UHGV virus genome: UHGV-0183426
DNA length: 53,584 bases
Reading direction: 5' to 3' (one strand)
DNA from: a virus
Of the stretch, positions 2,712-35,128 are shown piece by piece (the first letter of the stretch is position 1; each line of letters opens with the position of its first letter). A model generated the notes under the pieces. It had not been told where the DNA came from. It was given only the letters and a program-made list of their open reading frames with translations, and did no database searches. The position numbers were made by a program, and so were the translations under genes.

Positions 2712-3060
2712 AAAACCACCCCGATTATTTTTGATTCTCTGTTTCGTTCAGCCTTTCGGCGTGTCCGGCCCTTAGCCAATGTTCTAAGCATTCGTTGCAC
2801 TCGTTACAGCCTCCTTTCTTCGTGCTGCATACATTGCACATTGCACGCATAACGCTTTCTCGTTCATAGTCGTCATGCCATTGGTAATTATCAAAAGGCA
2901 TAATGCTCTCTCCTTTTCAGGTGATTTCTACGCATTTCAGCGCTGCCGGATTTTTAAAGAGCATTTTGTTTGCTTGAAGTATACAAAATGGATACGTGCT
3001 AACAAAGTGTAAAGCGCCATTATGTGACATTCATCACACAATGACGCCATTTTGTAAACT

Positions 3061-22471: not shown

Positions 22472-25400
22472 TTAGTCGTGTGATTCTTCCCATTTCGACC
22501 ATGTGCCGTTACTGCGACCGATAAACATAGTCGGGCAACTTAACGTAATCCCGGTGATGTTACCTGTTGACCACGGAGTGTGGATCTCGATAATAACATC
22601 GACCGTCTGATTTGTTACACCATCCCTACCGAAACAGAACATGCCGTTTGAGTTTTCGTTACCGTATTTCTTACCGACCAATACCTGAGTACCTGCTATC
22701 CAGGTATTGATCTGTGAGTTGCCGGTAGCCCCTGATAACCTTGCCTGGAACATAACGTTTTTATAAGTCCCATCGGATGTTGAGTCCACATAGCGATAAC
22801 AGAAACGCGCTACACGCTGGTTTGAGTTATAGACAGTGCTGGAATCAGGGAAAGTGTGAATAGCCACAATATCACCGACAAATTTGTTAGCCTGTACAGT
22901 CCCTTTAAACGTCCCGCTTGTGGCCTGAATCTCACCAGTAAATTTACCGTTTGTGGCGTATACCGTACCCCGAACAGTGACGTTATTGAACTCCGCGTTA
23001 CCGTTTTTGTTTAGCATCCAGCCAGCCGAACCAGATGCATAGTTGGTTGACTGGATTTGCTGCGCGATCTTCGCGGTAGTGATGGATGCGTCTTTGATCC
23101 ACGCTTCACGAATGTAGCAAGCGCCGTTAGTAACATAGAACGGGGTCTGATATGAACCGTTTGCCGCAGTCATTAACACGAAGCGGTCAACGAGGAAAAT
23201 ACACTGCGATTGCACGTTAGTTCCGCTACCAGTAAGGCCAAGTGACATACCAGTAGCGTATTTTACGCCCCGGCTGTCTGTCGCGATCTTAATAGAGTAT
23301 GATGCATCGACATCCCCCTTAAAGTCCGTTAACGCTTTCGATGTTGTCTCTATGGCTGTTGTGTTTCCGTCAATAGTTACTTTCAACTGGTCGATTCTGG
23401 TTGATAATGCCTCGTCTGCCGTTGCCATAGACTGTGACCATTCCGTGATGCTTGAGTTTACATCATCGAAAGACGCCGAGATCTGGACAAATTTTTCAGC
23501 GCTTGATGCCTCGTGAGTTGCGAGTGCCGTTGAAACATCCGTTATTTTTGCTGAAATGTTTTCATTAATATTTGCCTCAAGCGATGCTATAGCCTCCGCG
23601 CGGGCCTGGGTTTCGTCTGCTATTGCTGTGTCGATCCTTGCTATTTCCGCTTTTGTTTTTGTCTGGCCTTTCCTGTACTTCGCCTCAATAACGGTGCTCA
23701 TCTTGCTTTGCGCTATTGAGTTGTTGATAAGTGCAATCGAGGCGTTTTGCAGACTTGCTTTCGCCTGATCTATTTCGTCGCTGTTTTTATCAACCTCATT
23801 TTCAACAAGACCAAGCTCCGCACTAATTCCTGATATTGCCTGAGCGCGGGCGCTTGACTCATCAGCGATAGCTTGATCGAGACGAGAAACGCTAGCATCA
23901 GTTTTATTTTCCAGGCTGCTGATACTGGCGTTAACGTTGCTTATAGCCTCCGTTCTCGCCTGCGTTTCGGTTGCTATTGCTTTGTCTACGCGTGCTATTT
24001 CTCCTTTGATGTTTGAGTCCATCGTGCTTATTTCGGCTGTGATGGTTTCCAGTGATTCCGCTGTCGCTTTTTTCTCCTCTGCGATAACGTTGTCAATGCG
24101 GTCAATCTGCGCTTTTGTTTCGTTGCGACCTTTCTTATATTGAGCGGTAAGAGTAACCCGCGTGTTAGTTTGAGCAAGCGAGTTATTGATTAGAGCAAGC
24201 GAGGCGTTTTGTAAACTTGCTTTTGTCTGTGCCAGTTCATTGTTAACGTTTTCGTTTGATACCTCTAATGAGTCTATTCTTACCTCATGTTTGCCTATTT
24301 CATCGGCGTTTTCTTCGACTTTTTTATAAAGGTCTTCGGTGTCTTTTTTAAGTGTATCTGTGTCAGCTTTAAGATCCCTTGTAGCTATTTTAAGGTCTTC
24401 GGTAGCTCCTTCTACAATATCAGTGCGATCACCAAGATCTTTAATGTCGCTAATCATCTCCTTGAATTGCTCTGATTTCATTACATCCTTTGTAACGTAA
24501 TCAGTGATTTCGTCAAAATCCTCTGTTGGCTTACCTGATACCTCGACGAAATCAGACACACCAAAAGCATTACGAGTGCGCACATAAACGTAATAAGTAT
24601 GGCCCGTATTCATGCCGCCGAACGTCCACTGATACCCGCGCCCGGTAAACTGTGCCGACGTGGTTATTTTTGCCGGATCTGTGATCTGGTTTTCCCCTGC
24701 ATAGTAGAATTCGTATGACGTATCGGTAGTAAGTGTGGTTTTGCTAATAGGGTAAACTGTCGCCTGGAATACACCGGGAACCCAATTAACGCCGATCGGT
24801 GCTGCTGGCGCACCGATAACAAGGTCAACGATACTTTCGGCACCCTTCATGCCAGTATCATTTCTTCCTCGAACTCCTAACGAGTACGATCCGGCATCAA
24901 TACCGTAAAAATCATAACTATATTTATTGGTTTCGTAGCTTTTTACCACCGCACCATCCGTGTTATATATGCGGATCTCAAATGTCATGCGATGCGTAGT
25001 TGTCTGCGTTTCCCATGTTGCGCGGCATTGAACCGTTTCAGATCCGATGTTTACCACTTTCAGATTTTCAATATTCGGTACACGGAAGTGATTAAGCGTG
25101 TCGTTGTTGATTTCAAATACCGCGCCTTCATCGACTACTGCTTGTTTGTTAGGGTCATGTTGCGCGGCTTCGATGGTATACACGCTATTATTTTCGGTTT
25201 CGGCTACACTGGTGATTCTGCATAAAACGGGTTTTGCTGCTTCGGTTGATACAGCAAAAACAGTACCGTTTCTAATCCATGCAGGGGCCGCAGCCAGTGT
25301 GATTTTGTTCCCGTTGATACCAGTGATCTGATGTTTTTTAAATTTGCCATCGCTATCAAGCAGGCTGATAGTGTCGCCTGCCGTGATGTACTCGCTGTCA

Positions 25401-26926
25401 ACCTTATCAACTGTTATCACGTTCCCATTATTCGCCACGATACGACCGCCTAAACGCGCACCTGCGCGGTTATTGTCGAGGATCTCGATAATATCCCCTG
25501 GCGTAAAGTGAATCGCGTCACGGGCCATTTTAAATGTGAATTTTGACGGCTCGCGTTTTGCTGTTTCTATCAGCCACTTCCCAGCGCGGTGGGCTTGCCC
25601 GCGTGACGTGCACCCGAACGCCTCCAACGTGGTTTCGTTATAACCATCGCGGGCGATTAGTTCATCATCTGCTACGTATTCTTTTGATTGCTCCCAGCCG
25701 TTTTCCGGGTCAGTCCATGATACGATCACGGCATTGTAACACTCTGCAAGCGGAAGACTTGAACGAGTAAACGCGCCATCAACGACGTTTGCATTTGTAA
25801 TGGTGGCAATTGGATCTTGCGGTGCATCAATCATCACCGTAAGGCGCTGCCCGTCCCATAACGCGATACCACGGAACATACCTGCAATGTTATCCAGCAA
25901 GTCGCGTGCGCTCATTTGCTCCGTAATGTAGGCGTTGAGCGTCATGCGAGGTTCAAGGCCACCATAGCCATCATCAACCAACTGATCGCAGTATTGAGAA
26001 AGCACATACAAAGCGCCATCATCAACATCAATGTAACCAGCATGTTTAGCAAGCCCGAAGCGCTCGTTTTTAACCAGATACCGGAAAATCCACGCAGGGT
26101 TGTTGGTGTACGCTTTTTTGAATCCACCAAGCCATAATCCCGAATATGTGCGCGTTTCTGTGTTGTAGTTATCAGGCACGTCAACAATCAAGCCGCGAAG
26201 ATGATAGGTGCGGGTAGGCGTATCAGTGTACTGGTCATGGTCAATCACCGCGCCAGCTACAGCGGTATGAGGATAAGACAGATTGTCGTCTATGATTTCG
26301 CTGTAGCTACTCCACCGCGTATCATTCTGCAATAGATCGCTGTTGCTGTCTGCTGTTATGCGGCGCACGCGAATATCAAACGGTTTTTCATTAGGCGCAT
26401 CTATGATATGAGATTCAAGATACTCACCACTCTGTTTGCCTGGACCGATGGTAATGATTTTAATTTGCGACCACGTAGAAGATAATGATGGTTTAACATC
26501 AACCATCAACATAACGGATGTGTTATATTGGTTACCCTTATTATCTGACTGAACCAGAGAATCAACGCCAAGATTCAGCCTTACGCGGTTAACGTTTGGA
26601 TCTGAAACAGTCCTGATTATTGGCGTGTCGTGAGTTACCTTTGCGTTGACAATAACGGTTGACTCAATGGCATTAAAACCATTAATCGGCGATTGGTCAG
26701 CCGTGCCGTTGCGCCAGGCTATACTAACCCCCGGTATTGATGTATTCCCGTTTGCGTCAGTAACAGGCGTGTCATTAAGCATCACATCATTCAGTGGCGC
26801 TTTCTGGTTTACCGGACCGTATATCGGCCCTTCGCTGAGAATATCTAAAACACGATAAAACTGTTTATGATACAGGTTATCGTTTAATAATACTGGTGTT
26901 TTGGTTTTGCCGCCGCCGCTACTCAT
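22472..26926 (-). CDS. J: tail tip / host specificity protein J-like (central tail fiber)
   Basis: 1484 aa; follows I; N-terminal two-thirds typical of lambda J; extended coiled-coil region with internal repeats, then a distal domain. Confidence 0.9.
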   Translation of the reverse strand: MSSGGGKTKTPVLLNDNLYHKQFYRVLDILSEGPIYGPVNQKAPLNDVMLNDTPVTDANGNTSIPGVSIAWRNGTADQSPINGFNAIESTVIVNAKVTHDTPIIRTVSDPNVNRVRLNLGVDSLVQSDNKGNQYNTSVMLMVDVKPSLSSTWSQIKIITIGPGKQSGEYLESHIIDAPNEKPFDIRVRRITADSNSDLLQNDTRWSSYSEIIDDNLSYPHTAVAGAVIDHDQYTDTPTRTYHLRGLIVDVPDNYNTETRTYSGLWLGGFKKAYTNNPAWIFRYLVKNERFGLAKHAGYIDVDDGALYVLSQYCDQLVDDGYGGLEPRMTLNAYITEQMSARDLLDNIAGMFRGIALWDGQRLTVMIDAPQDPIATITNANVVDGAFTRSSLPLAECYNAVIVSWTDPENGWEQSKEYVADDELIARDGYNETTLEAFGCTSRGQAHRAGKWLIETAKREPSKFTFKMARDAIHFTPGDIIEILDNNRAGARLGGRIVANNGNVITVDKVDSEYITAGDTISLLDSDGKFKKHQITGINGNKITLAAAPAWIRNGTVFAVSTEAAKPVLCRITSVAETENNSVYTIEAAQHDPNKQAVVDEGAVFEINNDTLNHFRVPNIENLKVVNIGSETVQCRATWETQTTTHRMTFEIRIYNTDGAVVKSYETNKYSYDFYGIDAGSYSLGVRGRNDTGMKGAESIVDLVIGAPAAPIGVNWVPGVFQATVYPISKTTLTTDTSYEFYYAGENQITDPAKITTSAQFTGRGYQWTFGGMNTGHTYYVYVRTRNAFGVSDFVEVSGKPTEDFDEITDYVTKDVMKSEQFKEMISDIKDLGDRTDIVEGATEDLKIATRDLKADTDTLKKDTEDLYKKVEENADEIGKHEVRIDSLEVSNENVNNELAQTKASLQNASLALINNSLAQTNTRVTLTAQYKKGRNETKAQIDRIDNVIAEEKKATAESLETITAEISTMDSNIKGEIARVDKAIATETQARTEAISNVNASISSLENKTDASVSRLDQAIADESSARAQAISGISAELGLVENEVDKNSDEIDQAKASLQNASIALINNSIAQSKMSTVIEAKYRKGQTKTKAEIARIDTAIADETQARAEAIASLEANINENISAKITDVSTALATHEASSAEKFVQISASFDDVNSSITEWSQSMATADEALSTRIDQLKVTIDGNTTAIETTSKALTDFKGDVDASYSIKIATDSRGVKYATGMSLGLTGSGTNVQSQCIFLVDRFVLMTAANGSYQTPFYVTNGACYIREAWIKDASITTAKIAQQIQSTNYASGSAGWMLNKNGNAEFNNVTVRGTVYATNGKFTGEIQATSGTFKGTVQANKFVGDIVAIHTFPDSSTVYNSNQRVARFCYRYVDSTSDGTYKNVMFQARLSGATGNSQINTWIAGTQVLVGKKYGNENSNGMFCFGRDGVTNQTVDVIIEIHTPWSTGNITGITLSCPTMFIGRSNGTWSKWEESHD

Positions 26927-28146: not shown

Positions 28147-28884
28147 TTAACCTACCTTGCTGGAACCAGGGAAACAGGAAATCGGTAACGGATTCGGACG
28201 CGGGAAACGCAAACGACAACCGCTTAGACGGTGGCTGCATCTGTCGGCTTTAGGATCGCTTGTCGGCTCGTCTTTATCGTTTGCTACTGGTCCGCCAGCG
28301 TACATACACCCGTCGCCTCTGTATTGCCACTGGCAAACGTCAGCAAGGATGGTGCGCCCAGGGATAACGGCCTTATCAGCATCAATTGGCGTTGACAGCT
28401 CATATTGCACCTGATCCGCTGTTTCCTCGCTCATGGCCTCCACGACGTAAAAAGATACAGCCTCAATAGATGGATCTGCATCTGGATTGCCGTTTGGGAA
28501 GTTAACGGCGTCCAGGTATTTTACTTCCACCTGGCGGCGCGTAACCTTCATGCCTCTTAGGTCGTTGAAGTCGTTATTCATCCCTGTGATTAGCCCGCCG
28601 ATATTGGCTACAACCATTTGAGGCCGCGAATAAACGCCCTCGTTTTTCATTTCGAAGCCAGTAGCCTCGATCGGGTAGCTGTTGTAAGTTAATCCCTTCC
28701 AGATAACCGGGCCGTAATAGCCATTCGCGCCGGAATGGAAGCGGATAACCTCGCCACCCATGGGCGACAAGTCCAGTTCGAACAAGTCAATCACCGCGCC
28801 CACACCAGCGTCCACGGAATCAATAATCATCTCTGTAGGTATATTGCGCATTTTCTCACCTTCTGATTTTGTGATCTGCGTCAC
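28147..28884 (-). CDS. L: minor tail protein L-like
   Basis: 245 aa; C-terminal Cys cluster (CQWQYRGDGCMYAGG...CSHRLSGCRLRF) typical of lambda gpL. Confidence 0.85.
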   Translation of the reverse strand: MTQITKSEGEKMRNIPTEMIIDSVDAGVGAVIDLFELDLSPMGGEVIRFHSGANGYYGPVIWKGLTYNSYPIEATGFEMKNEGVYSRPQMVVANIGGLITGMNNDFNDLRGMKVTRRQVEVKYLDAVNFPNGNPDADPSIEAVSFYVVEAMSEETADQVQYELSTPIDADKAVIPGRTILADVCQWQYRGDGCMYAGGPVANDKDEPTSDPKADRCSHRLSGCRLRFPRPNPLPISCFPGSSKVG

Positions 28885-28895
28885 GCTAAATCATA

Positions 28896-28905
28896 CCAAA
28901 ATGGA
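28896..28905. promoter_or_regulatory. CCAAAATGGA variant of the recurrent element between L and plus-strand island 1
   Basis: motif at the boundary where transcription direction flips. Confidence 0.3.
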
Positions 28906-28980
28906 TTGATCGCGGTTTATACAATATGTATATTTTACTCAAACGGAAGCGCAGTTAACAAAATGGCGCGGAGGTGTGAG

Positions 28981-29136
28981 ATGGCTGATAAGGTGTGGAG
29001 GTTGACGGTATTCCTGACTGATGGCAGAAAAATGACTGTAGCTCTGTATAAGGATGAAGGCGAGGCACTTACTGACGCGCTTTTACTTGCTGAAGACGAA
29101 CGCGTTTTGGGGTACAGGATCGAACTTGTCAAATGA
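28981..29136 (+). CDS. hypothetical small protein (island 1)
   Basis: ORF track 28906..29136; internal Met with GGAGG 7 nt upstream. Confidence 0.35.
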   Translation: MADKVWRLTVFLTDGRKMTVALYKDEGEALTDALLLAEDERVLGYRIELVK

Positions 29137-29148
29137 GAGGTTAACGAA

Positions 29149-29496
29149 ATGCAAAAATATAGTCTTGATGTGTGGTTAAGTGGTTGCAAGGAGTGTTTCG
29201 GATTATTTGATAGCGAAGAGGCAGCTTTGGAAGAAGGAAGGATTCTTGAATGTAGTTTAGGCCATCCAGTGAAATATGCTGCTAATCCGGTGCAGATAAT
29301 TGATGAGGTGGAAAACATGAATCCGAAAGATATTAACTTTAACGTCAATGTTGAATTTGCTGATTCTATGGATCAGGCTTGCCCTGGTGAAATACACGCA
29401 AAAGGCTTCCCGGCTGACAATCCAGAAGCAAAACGCGAATACGAAAAAGCTGCGAAAGACTTCTGCATAGATAACCTGGCCGCATTCGATAAATAA
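29149..29496 (+). CDS. hypothetical protein (115 aa, island 1)
   Basis: ORF track; AT-rich. Confidence 0.45.
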   Translation: MQKYSLDVWLSGCKECFGLFDSEEAALEEGRILECSLGHPVKYAANPVQIIDEVENMNPKDINFNVNVEFADSMDQACPGEIHAKGFPADNPEAKREYEKAAKDFCIDNLAAFDK

Positions 29497-29505
29497 GGCG
29501 GCAAC

Positions 29506-29754
29506 ATGGGGCGGCGCAATCACGGCGATTATGTGTACACGCTGAAACAGGCCGCCCGCCTCATCGGTTATCATGAGCACGAATTTATTGATTTGCTGAT
29601 TGAGCGCGGGATACTGTACCAGGTCTGTTTAACGCTGTACCCGAAAGCGAAATACCTACAGGAAAAGTTATTCATCATCATGACGGATGAAAACCAGGTT
29701 AATCATTCATTCGTCACTGATAAGGGATTGACATATTTGAAGGGGGCGTTATGA
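29506..29754 (+). CDS. hypothetical protein, possible HTH (island 1)
   Basis: 82 aa; YTLKQAARLIGYHEHEFIDLLIERG looks helix-turn-helix-like. Confidence 0.4.
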   Translation: MGRRNHGDYVYTLKQAARLIGYHEHEFIDLLIERGILYQVCLTLYPKAKYLQEKLFIIMTDENQVNHSFVTDKGLTYLKGAL

Positions 29755-29831
29755 GATGTGCGAACATTACGTTCTGGAAATGATCATTATCATTATTGGA
29801 TTGTTATGCATTCTGCTATCGACACTATAAA

Positions 29832-29856
29832 CCCCGCCGTGGCGGGGTGTTTTTTA
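29832..29856 (+). terminator. hairpin CCCCGCCGTGGCGGGG plus T-run, end of island 1
   Basis: GC stem followed by TGTTTTTT on the plus strand. Confidence 0.55.
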
Positions 29857-30066
29857 ATCGTAGGATAGAAATGCTACTTCTTTGCCATCCCAAGTCGTAC
29901 AGCCGATATATCCATCACCCATATCATGAAGATACCACGTCTCGCCGTTATCAGCTTGTACAGTTAGATCATTAATTTCATAGTCGGCAAACAATGTAAA
30001 AGCGCCAGTGCGCTCCACTACACAAAAATAAGGCATATCCCCTCCCCTAATTAATAACTTGCTCAA
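29854..30066 (-). CDS. hypothetical protein (70 aa) downstream of M
   Basis: ORF track. Confidence 0.4.
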   Translation of the reverse strand: MSKLLIRGGDMPYFCVVERTGAFTLFADYEINDLTVQADNGETWYLHDMGDGYIGCTTWDGKEVAFLSYD

Positions 30067-30400
30067 ATGTTGCGTTTAGCGTGTATAGCGGTCCGTCTTT
30101 AGTCATGCTCCAGCTACGGCAAACAAAAAGCCTTTGCACGTTATCCATTGACGGCGACCAGTAAAAAGCCTCGACCGCGCCGCGCGCCCTCAAGAATGCT
30201 TCCGCCTGGATTGCTACGTTTTCACCATCACCACATCCGGCGCTACTGCCCTTAAACACCATGGTGTAGCTATCAAGTAACGGGTTGATACCTTTAACCT
30301 GTCTTTGCTCATAACCATCGCCCAGCTTAACAACTGATACGTCCGGCTCCCTGGTCACGCTGTAGCTTCGTTGCGGCGTCCATCTGAACACTTCCGGCAT
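30047..30400 (-). CDS. M: minor tail protein M-like
   Basis: 117 aa; FRW...GDGYEQR...FL...G...FYWSP...ATFEQVIN mirrors lambda gpM. Confidence 0.8.
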   Translation of the reverse strand: MPEVFRWTPQRSYSVTREPDVSVVKLGDGYEQRQVKGINPLLDSYTMVFKGSSAGCGDGENVAIQAEAFLRARGAVEAFYWSPSMDNVQRLFVCRSWSMTKDGPLYTLNATFEQVIN

Positions 30401-30485
30401 AAAACCCCCATAAGTTACATTTTGTATATATCTTTACGCGCCTCTACGCGAAAAATGAGATCTTAATCACAATGATTATAGCTAG

Positions 30486-30497
30486 TTTACAAAATGG
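30486..30497. promoter_or_regulatory. TTTACAAAATGG element between M and plus-strand island 2
   Basis: recurrent motif at a direction-switch boundary. Confidence 0.35.
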
Positions 30498-30568
30498 CTT
30501 CACATAGTACGCAACAAGATGTATATAGAAAGCAAGAAGAAAAGCAGTACCAACGAAGGAGGCCAAAA

Positions 30569-30724
30569 ATGAAACGCTATGTAGTGGTAATGCTGAACAA
30601 CGCATTCGAACAAGTGGAAATAGCAATCGTTAAGGGGTTCGACGACGCATTCAAATACGCTCAATTCATGATGAATGCAAAAGAAGATGAATACCGTGAT
30701 TTCTTCCTGAAGGCACTCAACTAA
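30569..30724 (+). CDS. hypothetical small protein (island 2)
   Basis: ORF track 30494..30724; internal Met with AGGAGG upstream. Confidence 0.4.
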   Translation: MKRYVVVMLNNAFEQVEIAIVKGFDDAFKYAQFMMNAKEDEYRDFFLKALN

Positions 30725-30741
30725 GGATGATGGGGTGAGTT

Positions 30742-30996
30742 ATGAAACTGGTAGCGATTGATAAAAACCTGAAAGTACAGAAAAACGCACAAGACAGGAC
30801 TATCAAGAAAGGGAAGGAACTGCTTAAAGCATTTTTGAAGAAAGAGGCGCGCCCCAAAAAGTTACGTGATGGTTATGGCTTTAAATTCGACATCAACCCT
30901 GACTGGAGGCTGTTTAGCGAAGACCTAAAAGTCTGGTTAATTATCGATCATCTGGAATATAACAGGCACTGTGGAGTCAAAGGGGTGCATAAGTGA
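30742..30996 (+). CDS. hypothetical protein (84 aa, island 2)
   Basis: ORF track. Confidence 0.45.
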   Translation: MKLVAIDKNLKVQKNAQDRTIKKGKELLKAFLKKEARPKKLRDGYGFKFDINPDWRLFSEDLKVWLIIDHLEYNRHCGVKGVHK

Positions 30997-31105
30997 GGTG
31001 GGACATGGAGGACGATAAATTCACCTGGCGGGAGATCTGGAATATTTGGTTGGTGATGTTCGGCAGTGGTTACGTCGCACGTAACGGAAGATTATAGGAG
31101 GAAAA

Positions 31106-31291
31106 ATGATTATTGACGAAACAGAGTTATGTTACGGAGTTAGGTTAGATCTTGATGAGGATGGTCGGCTATGGATAACCGAACTCATGGGGACTGACAT
31201 CCTCGTAATTGACAAATCGCAGGCGACGCAACTTATCGCCGGGCTTCAAAAATTTATAGATGGCACATTTGAGAACGATCAGGAGGATTAA
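31106..31291 (+). CDS. hypothetical protein (61 aa, island 2)
   Basis: ORF track. Confidence 0.4.
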   Translation: MIIDETELCYGVRLDLDEDGRLWITELMGTDILVIDKSQATQLIAGLQKFIDGTFENDQED

Positions 31292-31293
31292 CA

Positions 31294-31581
31294 ATGGATT
31301 TAACCGTCATTGGTCACGCACTGGCTGCGGCGGCTATGCAGGTTGTTATCGGCCTGCTTACTGGTGATTATCTCACTGGCGGCCTGATTGGATGTACATT
31401 CTTTTTTGCACGCGAACACACGCAGGCTGAATATCGTTACATAGCGGAATTTTGCGGTGGAAAACGGGAAAGAATGCCGTGGTATGGCGGATTATTACCT
31501 AAAGCATGGAATATGGCTAGCGTTTGCGACTTCGCCGCACCTGTATTCCTGTGCTGTTTGATTTATATTCTCACCATGTAA
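31294..31581 (+). CDS. hypothetical membrane protein (95 aa, island 2)
   Basis: hydrophobic N- and C-terminal segments. Confidence 0.45.
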   Translation: MDLTVIGHALAAAAMQVVIGLLTGDYLTGGLIGCTFFFAREHTQAEYRYIAEFCGGKRERMPWYGGLLPKAWNMASVCDFAAPVFLCCLIYILTM

Positions 31582-31586
31582 AATAA

Positions 31587-31605
31587 AGGCCGCTTATAGC
31601 GGCCT
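31587..31605. terminator. hairpin AGGCCGC-TTAT-AGCGGCCT between island 2 and the tape measure gene
   Basis: stem-loop with T-rich flanks on both strands. Confidence 0.45.
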
Positions 31606-31610
31606 TAGTG

Positions 31611-33956
31611 TTATTTGCGGCGCGGTTGCAACATCCCGCCAGGTCTTTGCGATTCCCTTGTTATCATCTTCATTGCTACACGTTCCATTGTTGATTCAAG
31701 TCTGCGGCTGTCTTCTTCGCTAAATCCGTTTGTGGTTTGAATACTGATACTGACAGGCATACTAAAACCGCCACCGCCGCCAATATCACGACCAGGAATA
31801 ACCCTGCCGTTCTCGCCTGGGATCATATATTGGTTGCCGTTAGACGTCTGGAATAGCTCCGGCCTGTTGTGTTCCCCTACGCGGTACATATTGCCACCAA
31901 TGACGCTACCACCATTAAAGCGACCGCCGCCGAAAATTGACGTAGCCAGCGACATGATCGCAGTGAGCGCAGCCGAACCAGCCGCCGCCCAGCTACCGCC
32001 AGTTGATGCAGCCGTTGCCGCCGCCGCCGGGGCCGCCGCCGCCGCGATGCTTTCCTGAGCGGCAACCGCGCTTGCCGTTGTACTTGCTTGAGTTGCCTTG
32101 CTTTGTGTTTCCATCATGATCTGATCTGCTATCCAGTCGGCTGCTATATCAGAAAGTCTGTTGCCAATATTCCCTAGTATATTGCTCCCTAAGTTAGCAA
32201 AAACATCGCTCAATGATTGAGTACCGTTAAGCAGGCCGACAAGCGCATTGCTCATGCCACCTTTAAGGCCATTAACGCAATCACCGATCAGGCCGTTTGT
32301 CTGGCTTTGCGCCTGCCATTGCTCCCATTTCAGATCGCGGATCTGTTGCTCATAGGCTAACAATGCCTGTTTCTGTTGCGCTTCGGTAGCGCCCAGGTCG
32401 ATAAGCATTTGCTTACGGACGGCCCATTCATTTTGTACCTGCTGAATAGGGTCAACCTCGCCTTTAAGCTGATTCATCGGGCTTACTATTTGCGCCCATT
32501 TATCACGCAATTCATCTACCGGAATTTGGGCTAATTCTTCCTTCAGTTCCTTACCTATCCCTTTTTGCGCGGCGCGGTACTCAAGGAGGGTGATTTTACC
32601 CTGGGCGAATGCAGCATCAATGGCCTTGCCGTTCTCTAACGCTTTGCGCATGGCGGCGGCGTCTTTATTGTACTGGTCAGAAACGCTTATACCCTTGTCA
32701 CCAAGCGTATCCTCTTTGCTTTTCTTGCTGCCAGTCTTCTTACCCTTTTTAGGCTTATCAACTGGCTTGTCGAATCCGGTGATCTTGCCGTCGTTGGCTT
32801 CTGCCTGTTTCTGCATAAACTCATCATAAGCGGCAGTCGCGTTTTTAATGTCGTTTGCAAAAGTCATGACTTTACCGACTGTAGGGCCGAATTTCTTCTC
32901 ATTGTTGCTATTTAGTTCTTCCTTGCGCTTATCTACAACCTCCTTCATCCATTTGTAGGCGTCCATAAGTGCCTTGATTGGCGTCACCATTGCGATGATC
33001 TTCTCTGCCACCTCGCCAGCCTTCACAGCCACATCATCAAACATGTCGATGAATTCGCCACCAGCCGTTTTGAGTGTATCGAAGCAGGTTTTAGCGAATT
33101 TAGCGCCCTCACCTAACCCCTTAACGCCTTTTGTGATTAAGTCGATAGCTGAGACTACGCCATCTGATACGCCGAAAAGATCATCAAGCTGTTCAACAAG
33201 ACCCATGATTTCGACTTTAAGCTCATTGATAGCCATGCCGGATGTGCGCGGCAACTGAGCAAACTGCTCGTTTGTTTCCTGCGTAGCCGCCTGGATTGCG
33301 TTAACCATCCTTTCTGCCGTGATCTTGCCGTCCAGCATTTCGGCGCGGAACTGGCCCATAGATAACCCCATCTGACGGGCCATTGTCTGTACGATGGTCG
33401 GGGTGTTTTCAAGTAGGCTGTTAAATTCTTCAGCACGCAGCACGCCGCCGTCTATAGACTGGCGGAACTGGCGCATAGAGTTAGACATCTGTTCCGCTGA
33501 TGCGCCGCCTAACGCCCCCATTTTCTGAATAGTGCCAACCAGGTTAAGTAATTGCCCTTCCGTAGCTGACGTGTTCTTCAGTGAGATGGCAAGACCTTGC
33601 CATAGCTCGCCAGTATCCTTCAGGCTTTGCCCCGTTTCCCTGGATATTGCTTTCAGGCCGTCGAAAACCCGTCCGGCGGACTCCGCATCGCCCGTAAGCA
33701 TTTTGATTTTTACGCGAAGCATTTTTGCTTGCTCCGCCATATCCATAAATTGGCGCACAGCCTCGGCAGCAATTAGCAAATGGATAACCCTGGTCAGTGC
33801 TTTGATGGATGTTTTCAGGGTGTTTACCTGGCGGTCAGCCTGTTTTGCGCCGCGCTCTATACGGTCAAAGGCCTGGTCTGCCTGTCGTTGTGCAACGAGA
33901 AGTTGACCAGTTTTTGCATCAACTTCGTAATAAATTGTACCTACACTGGTAGCCAT
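31611..33956 (-). CDS. tail tape measure protein
   Basis: 781 aa; largely alpha-helical low-complexity composition, Gly/Ala-rich C-terminus; position between chaperone and M. Confidence 0.8.
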   Translation of the reverse strand: MATSVGTIYYEVDAKTGQLLVAQRQADQAFDRIERGAKQADRQVNTLKTSIKALTRVIHLLIAAEAVRQFMDMAEQAKMLRVKIKMLTGDAESAGRVFDGLKAISRETGQSLKDTGELWQGLAISLKNTSATEGQLLNLVGTIQKMGALGGASAEQMSNSMRQFRQSIDGGVLRAEEFNSLLENTPTIVQTMARQMGLSMGQFRAEMLDGKITAERMVNAIQAATQETNEQFAQLPRTSGMAINELKVEIMGLVEQLDDLFGVSDGVVSAIDLITKGVKGLGEGAKFAKTCFDTLKTAGGEFIDMFDDVAVKAGEVAEKIIAMVTPIKALMDAYKWMKEVVDKRKEELNSNNEKKFGPTVGKVMTFANDIKNATAAYDEFMQKQAEANDGKITGFDKPVDKPKKGKKTGSKKSKEDTLGDKGISVSDQYNKDAAAMRKALENGKAIDAAFAQGKITLLEYRAAQKGIGKELKEELAQIPVDELRDKWAQIVSPMNQLKGEVDPIQQVQNEWAVRKQMLIDLGATEAQQKQALLAYEQQIRDLKWEQWQAQSQTNGLIGDCVNGLKGGMSNALVGLLNGTQSLSDVFANLGSNILGNIGNRLSDIAADWIADQIMMETQSKATQASTTASAVAAQESIAAAAAPAAAATAASTGGSWAAAGSAALTAIMSLATSIFGGGRFNGGSVIGGNMYRVGEHNRPELFQTSNGNQYMIPGENGRVIPGRDIGGGGGFSMPVSISIQTTNGFSEEDSRRLESTMERVAMKMITRESQRPGGMLQPRRK

Positions 33957-34083: not shown

Positions 34084-34743
34084 ATGAAACGGTTAGCAAA
34101 AGTGGCAATGATTGCGGCGGTATTGGGTCTGGTTGGTTGCAATGAGGATAATGAAAAAGCGCCTATAGTGACCAATCAAGAACAACAAGCATTAGCAGAG
34201 AAAAATGCTAAATGGCTTGCAGAACAACAAGCAAAACAAGCCGCATACGATGCACAGTTAGAAAAAGAAAATGCTGGTAAACAGTGGCTTGTAGTTGAAA
34301 GAAAAGATGATATGCAGGACGCAAAAAACGTATTCCTTTTTGTGAAAGCAGAACAATTCAGCGGAAGTCTTGATGCTTTCCCGACACTGAAGGCACAGGA
34401 TAAGAATAAACCGGTATTAACAATCGCTTGCCAGGGTAATAAAACAAAAATGTTCGTAGCATGGTCACACCATGTAACTGACGCCGGGGACACTACTTAT
34501 ATTAACTACCGGATCGGCGTTCACAAAGCTGTAGCTACTGAGTGGGGGCGGTCAACTAATTATAAAGCTCTTGGATTATGGGATGGCAAAAAAGCCATCC
34601 CAATGATTAAAAAAATGGTTAACGAAAAACAATTCATCATTGAAGTAGTGCCGGAAGCTGGCGACATTGAGAAAGCAGTGTTTAACATTGATGGTCTTTA
34701 TAACCACATCGACAAAGTGAAAAACGCTTGCAACTGGAATTAA
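34084..34743 (+). CDS. lipoprotein (219 aa), moron
   Basis: signal peptide with lipobox LGLVGC; AT-rich; opposite strand to the tail genes. Confidence 0.6.
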   Translation: MKRLAKVAMIAAVLGLVGCNEDNEKAPIVTNQEQQALAEKNAKWLAEQQAKQAAYDAQLEKENAGKQWLVVERKDDMQDAKNVFLFVKAEQFSGSLDAFPTLKAQDKNKPVLTIACQGNKTKMFVAWSHHVTDAGDTTYINYRIGVHKAVATEWGRSTNYKALGLWDGKKAIPMIKKMVNEKQFIIEVVPEAGDIEKAVFNIDGLYNHIDKVKNACNWN

Positions 34744-34753
34744 GGGGTAAATC

Positions 34754-35128
34754 ATGAAAAACATAATCAAAGCGGCTCTCATTGGTGTTATGGCTTTAGC
34801 TCTTACAGGGTGCGCAAGATCAACTGATTTCGTTAAGTTAGCTGATAAAAAATTGCAAGTTGGAATGACTTGTGAGCAAGTGAATAAAATAATGGGGGAA
34901 CCACAAAGAATCGAGCATGACGGTAATTATAGTTATCACGTATGGTATTCAGTAACCAGCACGATAGGATTTACTTACATGGATGTTGAAGAATTATCCC
35001 CTTCAAGGGTTATCGCAAAGTTTGATAACTGCATCCTAAAAGAATGGAAAGATCGCAGTAAGGCAAAGTCTGTATACAATACAATCACACACAGTTCACC
35101 AGGTACAGCAATTAAAGATTTCAATTAG
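34754..35128 (+). CDS. lipoprotein, BamE/SmpA-OmlA-like (124 aa), moron
   Basis: lipobox LALTGC; ...LQVGMTCEQVNKIMGEPQ... pattern reminiscent of the OmlA/BamE fold. Confidence 0.5.
   Translation: MKNIIKAALIGVMALALTGCARSTDFVKLADKKLQVGMTCEQVNKIMGEPQRIEHDGNYSYHVWYSVTSTIGFTYMDVEELSPSRVIAKFDNCILKEWKDRSKAKSVYNTITHSSPGTAIKDFN

Follow-up and report, generated by a model that had tools for sequence, protein, structure and literature searches.

Why would the tail operon of a temperate phage be interrupted by a group of small genes that face against it? The question is raised by virus genome UHGV-0183426, a stretch of 53,584 nucleotides that was analyzed whole and is referred to here as the window. Positions 30401–31610 of the window (1210 bp) carry plus-strand genes between the gene for minor tail protein M and the gene for the tail length tape measure protein, both of which are encoded on the minus strand. 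This segment, called island 2, is a moron-type accessory cassette of a known kind; the term moron was first applied to gene 15 of phage HK97 (PMC3594210). The reading favored here, with somewhat more confidence than doubt, is that island 2 is an autonomous multi-gene moron array positioned head-on in a late tail operon that depends on the antiterminator Q, and that its expression follows from this placement in the way proposed below. The nucleotide sequence of the island region is 82–88% identical to those of phages mEp021, mEp010, mEp044, mEp554, mEp515, and MagusPhagus, and matching prophages are present in 34 of 5,426 complete Escherichia coli genomes. The gene order in relatives of the mEp021/MagusPhagus group is the same as in the window, which is identified by these comparisons as an mEpimmI (mEp021-like) temperate coliphage. 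The mEpimmI phages are Nus-dependent, non-lambdoid temperate coliphages that have been reported to equal lambdoid phages in frequency in human faecal samples; the paper describing them mentions neither the genes of island 2 nor the sequence motif that precedes them (PMC11893012). The features of island 2 are as follows.

30486–30497, plus strand: 12-mer motif TTTACAAAATGG, 1 nucleotide (nt) upstream of the predicted −35 hexamer
30499–30527, plus strand: predicted sigma-70-type promoter TTCACA-17 nt-TATATA, read from the sequence
30569–30724, plus strand: open reading frame 1 (ORF1), 51 amino acids (aa), acidic with an isoelectric point (pI) of 5.1, phrog_29810, Shine–Dalgarno (SD) sequence GGAGG at 30558–30562
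30742–30996, plus strand: ORF2, 84 aa, basic with a pI of 9.9 and a net charge of +10, PF24732 (ParE_like), phrog_1525
31005–31097, plus strand: ORF2b, 30-aa Trp-rich micro-protein MEDDKFTWREIWNIWLVMFGSGYVARNGRL, ATG at 31005, SD sequence GAGGTGG
31106–31291, plus strand: ORF3, 61 aa, very acidic with a pI of 4.05 and a net charge of −11.5, phrog_13627
31294–31581, plus strand: ORF4, 95-aa membrane protein, hydropathy profile showing two hydrophobic regions, phrog_1443
31586–31606: bidirectional terminator-like hairpin AAGGCCGCT-TAT-AGCGGCCTT, with a 9-bp stem (6 GC) and a 3-nt loop

The island was compared with loci that were fetched with M as the query, which introduces no bias as to the content of the island. 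The comparison includes 31 mEpimmI-type loci, in 28 of which the distance from the tape measure gene to M could be measured, whereas the three other contigs are too short. The five small genes of island 2 are separated by short gaps, with the stop codon of ORF3 2 nt from the start of ORF4. ORF1–ORF4 are located where the original prediction had placed them and each has an SD sequence; however, its total of four genes was too low, because ORF2b had been overlooked. The ratios of nonsynonymous to synonymous substitution rates (dN/dS), computed across relatives, are 0.05 for ORF1, 0.06 for ORF2, 0.17 for ORF3, and 0.12 for ORF4, compared with 0.065 for the tail gene M. All four proteins match PHROG families that lack functional annotation, with E-values of 1.9e-38, 2.4e-18, 1.8e-9, and 1.8e-36, respectively. 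The dN/dS values, PHROG matches, and SD sequences together indicate that ORF1–ORF4 are real coding genes under purifying selection. The SD sequence of ORF2b overlaps the stop codon of ORF2, and its peptide is kept despite many synonymous changes in 19 of the 31 related loci; the gene is annotated in MagusPhagus. A few prophages (L003, L015, and L029) have ORF2b broken by a stop codon or frameshift. The conserved start of ORF1 is at 30569, which is the only start, giving the 51-aa protein, that is kept in all relatives. A further in-frame ATG upstream of it, at position 30494 within the 12-mer motif, would extend the protein to 76 aa, but this frame is open in only some relatives; database versions of the ORF1 protein are 51, 68, or 76 aa long.

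Three marks of a moron are present in the sequence of island 2: it is extra DNA, it has its own terminator, and its base composition deviates from that of its surroundings, with a GC content of 43.2% against 50.8% in each of the flanking tail genes. A conserved promoter-like element precedes the genes, every variant of the island has a terminator, and a tblastn comparison of the island genes with the HK97 tail region detected no similarity to tail genes, so that the description of the locus in the original prediction as an opposite-strand moron island is well founded. Read from either strand, the hairpin between the stop codons of ORF4 and the tape measure gene resembles a terminator. Its existence had been predicted correctly, at 31587–31605, but it is longer by one nucleotide at each end. 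A GC hairpin closes every variant of the island just before the tape measure stop codon.

The set of genes between the promoter-like element and the hairpin differs among relatives, and the tape measure gene and M are 681–1393 bp apart in the 28 measurable loci. ORF2 is present in all 31 loci and ORF1 in 29. The cargo behind them consists of the 30-aa gene in 19 loci, ORF3 in 17, a 58-aa gene in 15, ORF4 in seven, and a 49-aa gene in five. In mEp021 (L002), ORF3 and ORF4 are replaced by a gene for a putative zinc-ribbon protein and a hypothetical gene, the translation of which likewise resembles a zinc ribbon. The same phage has a gene for an HNH endonuclease between I and J (L002 1619–2185 and 6682–8016 for the two mEp021 features). 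Hairpins of the AAGGCCGC type always accompany ORF4 or its remnant, and those of the AACCCCGG...CCGGGGTTTT type accompany most other cargo. Since the hairpin type tracks the cargo, the terminator and cargo move together, while the promoter and ORF1–ORF2 stay fixed. In L021 and L022, only the last 24 codons of ORF4 and the hairpin have been retained, which records a deletion. The alignments thus divide the island into a near-invariant 5′ core of ORF1–ORF2 and exchangeable 3′ genes that come with their own terminator.

The 12-mer motif upstream of ORF1, noted in the original prediction, is real and far more frequent than expected by chance. The window contains four exact copies of it and six with one mismatch, and 27 copies with two or fewer mismatches, compared with 9.9 expected. 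Its 9-mer core ACAAAATGG has 14 exact copies, where 0.94 are expected. The 12-mer occupies the same position in mEp021, MagusPhagus, and most of the 31 loci, with a few variants that differ in one or two bases. Alignment of the spacer between M and ORF1 from 28 distinct relatives shows that the motif, both promoter hexamers, and the 5′ untranslated region (UTR) are conserved, whereas the sequence between the hexamers is variable. This is the footprint expected of a promoter. The best match to the sigma-70 consensus in the region (10 of 12 positions) is a different site, TCGTCA-17-TATAAT at 31119–31091 on the minus strand, which faces ORF2, ORF1, and M; it may be a chance occurrence, as five such sites were found with 6.1 expected, or an internal antisense or M promoter.

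Other features of the window are as follows.

30047–30400, minus strand: minor tail protein M, left flank (PF05939, 8.9e-28), 28% identical to M of HK97
30417–30428, minus strand: degenerate copy of the motif, TATACAAAATGT, facing M and 17–28 nt upstream of its start codon, in a block that is kept in relatives
31611–33956, minus strand: tail length tape measure protein, right flank (PF20155, 1.9e-49)
569–1291: Q antiterminator (PF03589), which is also annotated in mEp021
11227–11874: CI-like repressor (HTH_3 and Peptidase_S24)

According to the favored reading, transcription of the island would start at the weak sigma-70-type promoter that abuts the phage-wide 12-mer. Because the late operon depends on Q, RNA polymerase modified by Q could read through the hairpin that follows the tape measure gene, and it would then cross the island antisense to its genes on the way to M-L-K-I-J. 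Unmodified polymerase arriving from either side would stop at the hairpin, which would make the island an insulated unit. Convergent, antisense late transcription would silence the island, so that its genes would be active only in the absence of late transcription, most likely in the prophage, and their products would act on the cell and not in the virion. What the products might do can only be guessed at: ORF2 could be an effector resembling the RelE/ParE superfamily that is modulated by ORF1, and, equally tentatively, ORF4 could be an inner-membrane protein that alters envelope or entry properties, for example by exclusion.

Several observations weigh against this account. The predicted −10 hexamer lacks the usual final T and the site falls below the threshold of a consensus scan, because of which the promoter is probably weak or dependent on an activator or other factor. 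Downstream of the repressor gene, the 12-mer also adjoins a strong early promoter, and it lies upstream of that gene as well. ORF1 and ORF2 occur throughout the group and are constrained like a tail gene, which fits a role essential to the phage better than that of optional cargo. No alignment between ORF4 and gp15 of HK97 was obtained with BLASTP at E ≤ 100, and no test independent of Pfam backs a toxin fold for ORF2.

The position of the 12-mer next to an early promoter and the repressor gene means that island 2 could instead be a unit of the early lytic phase, kept repressed in lysogens. The 12-mer would be an operator shared with early promoters, and the island, silent in lysogens, would come on right after infection or induction, serving in host takeover or in countering defences, and would then be shut off by late antisense transcription. 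This is a possible but doubtful alternative. The 12-mer is located 1 nt upstream of the −35 hexamer both in island 2 and at TTGACT-17-TATATT, the strong promoter located downstream of the gene for the CI-like repressor, and further copies of the motif are found at and upstream of the start of the repressor gene. Copies of the core ACAAAATGG are at 2983, 28958, 30489, 34000, and 51144 on the plus strand and at 3047, 11106, 11860, 11948, 15516, 34025, 38147, 42567, and 51169 on the minus strand, and most are oriented like the genes downstream of them. They occur at the immunity region and the early promoter, and they also head all three antisense islands of the tail operon. Core copies flank the hairpin equivalent to TERM_4 of mEp021, near the reported nutR2, and two pairs of copies form 12+16+12 palindromes. 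An early role would suit the status of ORF1 and ORF2 as core genes of the group. It would also suit island 1, on the other side of M, which is headed by the motif and encodes a protein with a KilAC antirepressor domain, the constitutive expression of which is not expected in a lysogen. Furthermore, a relative of ORF2 with 53% identity is found in a run of small genes that resembles a phage early region. However, the motif lacks the dyad symmetry that binding by a CI-type dimer would need. The position of the motif relative to promoters is not constant, and in island 1 the motif is downstream of the promoter-like site, in the 5′ UTR. The low GC content, own terminator, and mosaic 3′ end are the classical signature of a moron. 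By eye, the motif gave no consistent fit to a −35, −10, sigma-54, Fis, IHF, Fur, TyrR, boxA, or boxB site. A scan of viral contigs for a 15-mer containing the motif returned mEpimmI contigs mixed with apparently random ones and was uninformative.

A second alternative concerns the core pair. ORF1–ORF2 could be a type II toxin–antitoxin system of the ParDE or RelBE kind, serving addiction or abortive infection, in which ORF2 would attack gyrase or translation and ORF1 would be a labile antitoxin and autorepressor. ORF2 matches the ParE_like family PF24732 with an E-value of 4.7e-10 and a score of 39.8 bits, above the gathering cutoff of 24.4, and its RefSeq name is "ParE family toxin-like protein". 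The two genes are co-oriented and 17 nt apart, with the acidic protein encoded first and the basic one second, as in an antitoxin-first operon, both are under strong purifying selection, and they occur together in 29 of the 31 loci. The remaining two loci, L011 and L012 (the same as contigs L054 and L057), are evidence against such a pair: ORF1 is cleanly absent, the same promoter is joined to an intact ORF2, and ORF2 keeps all 26 of its invariant residues. One of these two genomes is a prophage in an isolate genome.

The predicted structure of ORF1 also speaks against an antitoxin. The AlphaFold2 (AF2) model has a beta-beta-alpha-beta topology and a predicted local distance difference test (pLDDT) score of 88.5, and its neighbors in fold space are generic ferredoxin-like domains and uncharacterized small phage proteins; the fold searches found no ribbon-helix-helix (RHH), AbrB, Phd, or helix-turn-helix (HTH) fold of the DNA-binding kind typical of antitoxins. 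For ORF2, the connection to ParE and RelE comes from the Pfam model and from nothing else. No other toxin family matched it. The AF2 model of ORF2 has a pLDDT of 66, and a Foldseek search with this low-confidence model returned no PDB match below E = 3; hmmsearch against PDB sequences found none. Alignment by hhalign to RelE, YoeB, YafQ, HigB, and ParE gave values of 7–16, which exceed those of shuffled controls (up to 12.6) only marginally and are not significant. The targets were six toxin sequences, the family membership of which was confirmed by Pfam. An exhaustive phmmer search of 1.84 billion representative sequences identified five proteins at E ≤ 1e-3, which is too shallow for a good alignment, and tblastn against plasmids gave no match. 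Scans of all island proteins with NCBIfam and PADLOC produced a single weak match, of ORF2 to PDC-M02A (E = 0.0026), and an Rfam search gave no relevant match.

Some details are compatible with a RelE-like protein. The local hhalign matches are co-linear, pairing a PDW of ORF2 with the PDW motif of YafQ and a helix with helix 2 of YoeB, and the predicted order of strands and helices as well as the invariant residues R56, H70, H83, and K84 would fit such a fold. This is only a lead. The co-variation of ORF1 with ORF2 (Spearman 0.51) is no more than their linkage with M gives (0.45). The 53%-identity relative of ORF2 lies among small genes on the same strand and is not part of an obvious two-gene module. 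The classical ParE-type reading of ORF1–ORF2 is thus weakened, and a toxin–antitoxin system is considered unlikely.

A more elaborate and rather improbable interpretation combines the motif with the pair. Island 2 might belong to a phage-wide regulon of the oriented motif TWTACAAAATGG, in which a factor that acts at the immunity region and early promoter would also gate three antisense cassettes of the late tail operon, each firing in a defined period before being erased by late transcription. In such a regulon, ORF1–ORF2 would be a non-canonical pair of effector and modulator, with a ParE/RelE-like fold and a ferredoxin-like partner that is dispensable for viability, and fixation of the pair throughout the lineage would reflect a service to the phage, such as shutting off the host or countering its defences, and not addiction. 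Of the loose ends at the locus, this motif, spread across the phage genome, is the most intriguing.

The original prediction had also raised the idea of a toxin and immunity module composed of the membrane protein and the small proteins encoded with it. In this view, ORF3 and ORF4, possibly with ORF2b, would be a membrane toxin together with its immunity protein. The genes are 2 nt apart, ORF4 is a membrane protein, and all seven loci with ORF4 carry the same subtype of ORF3, the one with about 90% identity; a second subtype, with about 45% identity, brings the number of loci with ORF3 to 17. However, members of the ORF3 family are the last gene of the island, without ORF4, in about 10 loci. 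ORF4 has homologues of 54–59% identity in 53 Escherichia and nine Aeromonas phage records, and in phage 21 (L004 3210–3794) and PhiR40_1, the lambdoid records examined, the homologue follows the side-tail-fibre gene (stf) and an unrelated 92-aa gene, to which ORF3 could not be aligned in the case of phage 21. Since ORF3 occurs without ORF4 and ORF4 without ORF3, the two are independent cargo and not an obligate toxin and immunity pair. PADLOC, Pfam, and NCBIfam gave no matches in favor of such a module, which is regarded as improbable. The polar loop between the two hydrophobic regions of ORF4 contains the sequences AREHTQAEYR and MPW-x-GG, which are invariant in the alignment. An exclusion or envelope role for ORF4 is weakly suggested by analogy. 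Finally, despite the small size of the genes and the lack of a known function for any of them, it is hardly credible that they are chance frames or what is left of a disrupted and decayed tail gene, the latter being an outcome that the original prediction had named as refuting it, because the PHROG matches and dN/dS values exclude it, the frames have SD sequences and are conserved across the 31 related genomes, ORF4 is also found in unrelated lambdoid phages, and the tblastn comparison revealed no resemblance to HK97 tail genes.

The favored reading of island 2 as an autonomous moron array leads to the question of whether its location is exceptional. The original prediction considered opposite-strand cargo unusual for the conserved H-M-L-K-I-J block; this does not agree with the HK97 record, in which gp15 and gp22 are each named "moron product" and gp23 "reverse moron product" within the same block. 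It also does not agree with a more distant set of 49 phages, the M proteins of which are 66–71% identical to that of the window (L064–L112). The tape measure gene and M abut or overlap (−4 to +2 nt) in 20 of these phages, whereas 27 have inserts of 292–491 bp at the junction. In seven of 12 insert representatives that were read, the longest ORF is on the opposite strand. The inserts are of three kinds, a same-strand gene for 70–73 aa (MEYQIEDIT...), an opposite-strand gene for 75–79 aa (MAAPTHEQL...), and an opposite-strand gene for a 132-aa membrane protein. The junction between M and L is equally variable, with distances of 41–800 bp. These comparisons mark the junction of the tape measure gene and M as a hotspot for insertions in general. 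The distinctive feature is the fixation there, in one lineage, of an antisense unit with several genes.

Island 2 is one of three opposite-strand islands in the tail region of the window, where the minus-strand tail genes are arranged in the order J (22472–26926), I, K, L (28147–28884), M, and tape measure. As had been predicted, M is bracketed by opposite-strand blocks, with plus-strand genes on both sides and the tape measure gene beyond island 2. A 70-aa gene at 29854–30066 on the minus strand (phrog_3249), which is conserved group-wide, shares 20 nt with the 3′ end of M, so that M has one further same-strand gene before island 1. Island 1 (28885–29853, plus strand) contains genes at 28981–29136, 29149–29496, and 29506–29754, the last of which encodes the KilAC domain (PF03374, 1.8e-6), and is closed by a hairpin at 29831–29848. 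Its promoter-like sequence TTGATC-17-TATATT at 28906–28934 is upstream of the motif copy, which is located 14 nt before the ATG. Island 3 (34084–35128, plus strand), upstream of the tape measure gene, contains two candidate lipoprotein genes, the products of which have N-termini that by eye resemble a lipobox with Cys. The first matches VasI of the type VI secretion system (PF11319, 1.4e-15) and the second has weak matches to BamE and DUF7738.

Island 2 shows how a lineage can fix a two-gene core at an insertion hotspot and swap the cargo behind it. The label "ParE family toxin-like" for ORF2, which is now spreading in RefSeq, derives from one Pfam model, and the natural variants in which ORF2 has no partner contradict it as a description of a classical toxin–antitoxin pair. 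If the island encodes exclusion, defence, or host-modulating factors, these would join the traits that gut E. coli owes to its prophages. In addition, the layout is a compact, naturally occurring system for testing gene control by head-on late transcription.

Among known systems, island 2 most resembles the morons of HK97 and HK022, where the gene for gp15 separates the G/T chaperone genes from the tape measure gene, and those for gp22 and gp23 lie between I and J. In both cases, extra DNA of deviating GC content is inserted among lambda-type tail genes with its own promoter, which in island 2 is predicted, and its own terminator; some of the morons are on the opposite strand, and their small products include an inner-membrane protein. 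ORF4, like the superinfection exclusion protein gp15 of HK97, is a small membrane protein from a moron of the tail operon, and its homologue in phage 21 is annotated with two transmembrane domains. By contrast, island 2 has no sequence similarity to any HK97 moron, comprises five genes instead of one, is located at the tape measure–M junction, and has a 5′ pair that is fixed group-wide and not sporadic. The closest counterpart of ORF4, CPT_21_24 of phage 21 ("putative membrane protein", phrog_1443), has 54–59% full-length identity and the same invariant loop, but its gene follows stf, shares the strand of the tail genes, and has other neighbors. ParDE and RelBE systems share with ORF1–ORF2 a small acidic gene directly upstream of a small basic one and the match of ORF2 to PF24732; however, ORF1 lacks the DNA-binding fold of an antitoxin, ORF2 persists intact without its partner, and ORF2 matches no canonical toxin family or solved structure. 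The proposed regulation has a parallel in the taiEcA/atiEcA "noncontiguous operon" of phi80, in which a divergent gene interrupts the Q-controlled late operon, and for which expression in the prophage and late shut-off have been proposed (PMC11364771). Island 2 likewise splits a Q-dependent operon on the opposite strand, with a terminator following the tape measure gene, whereas the phi80 gene lies upstream of the module for packaging, not among tail genes, and has no Tai homologue in the island.

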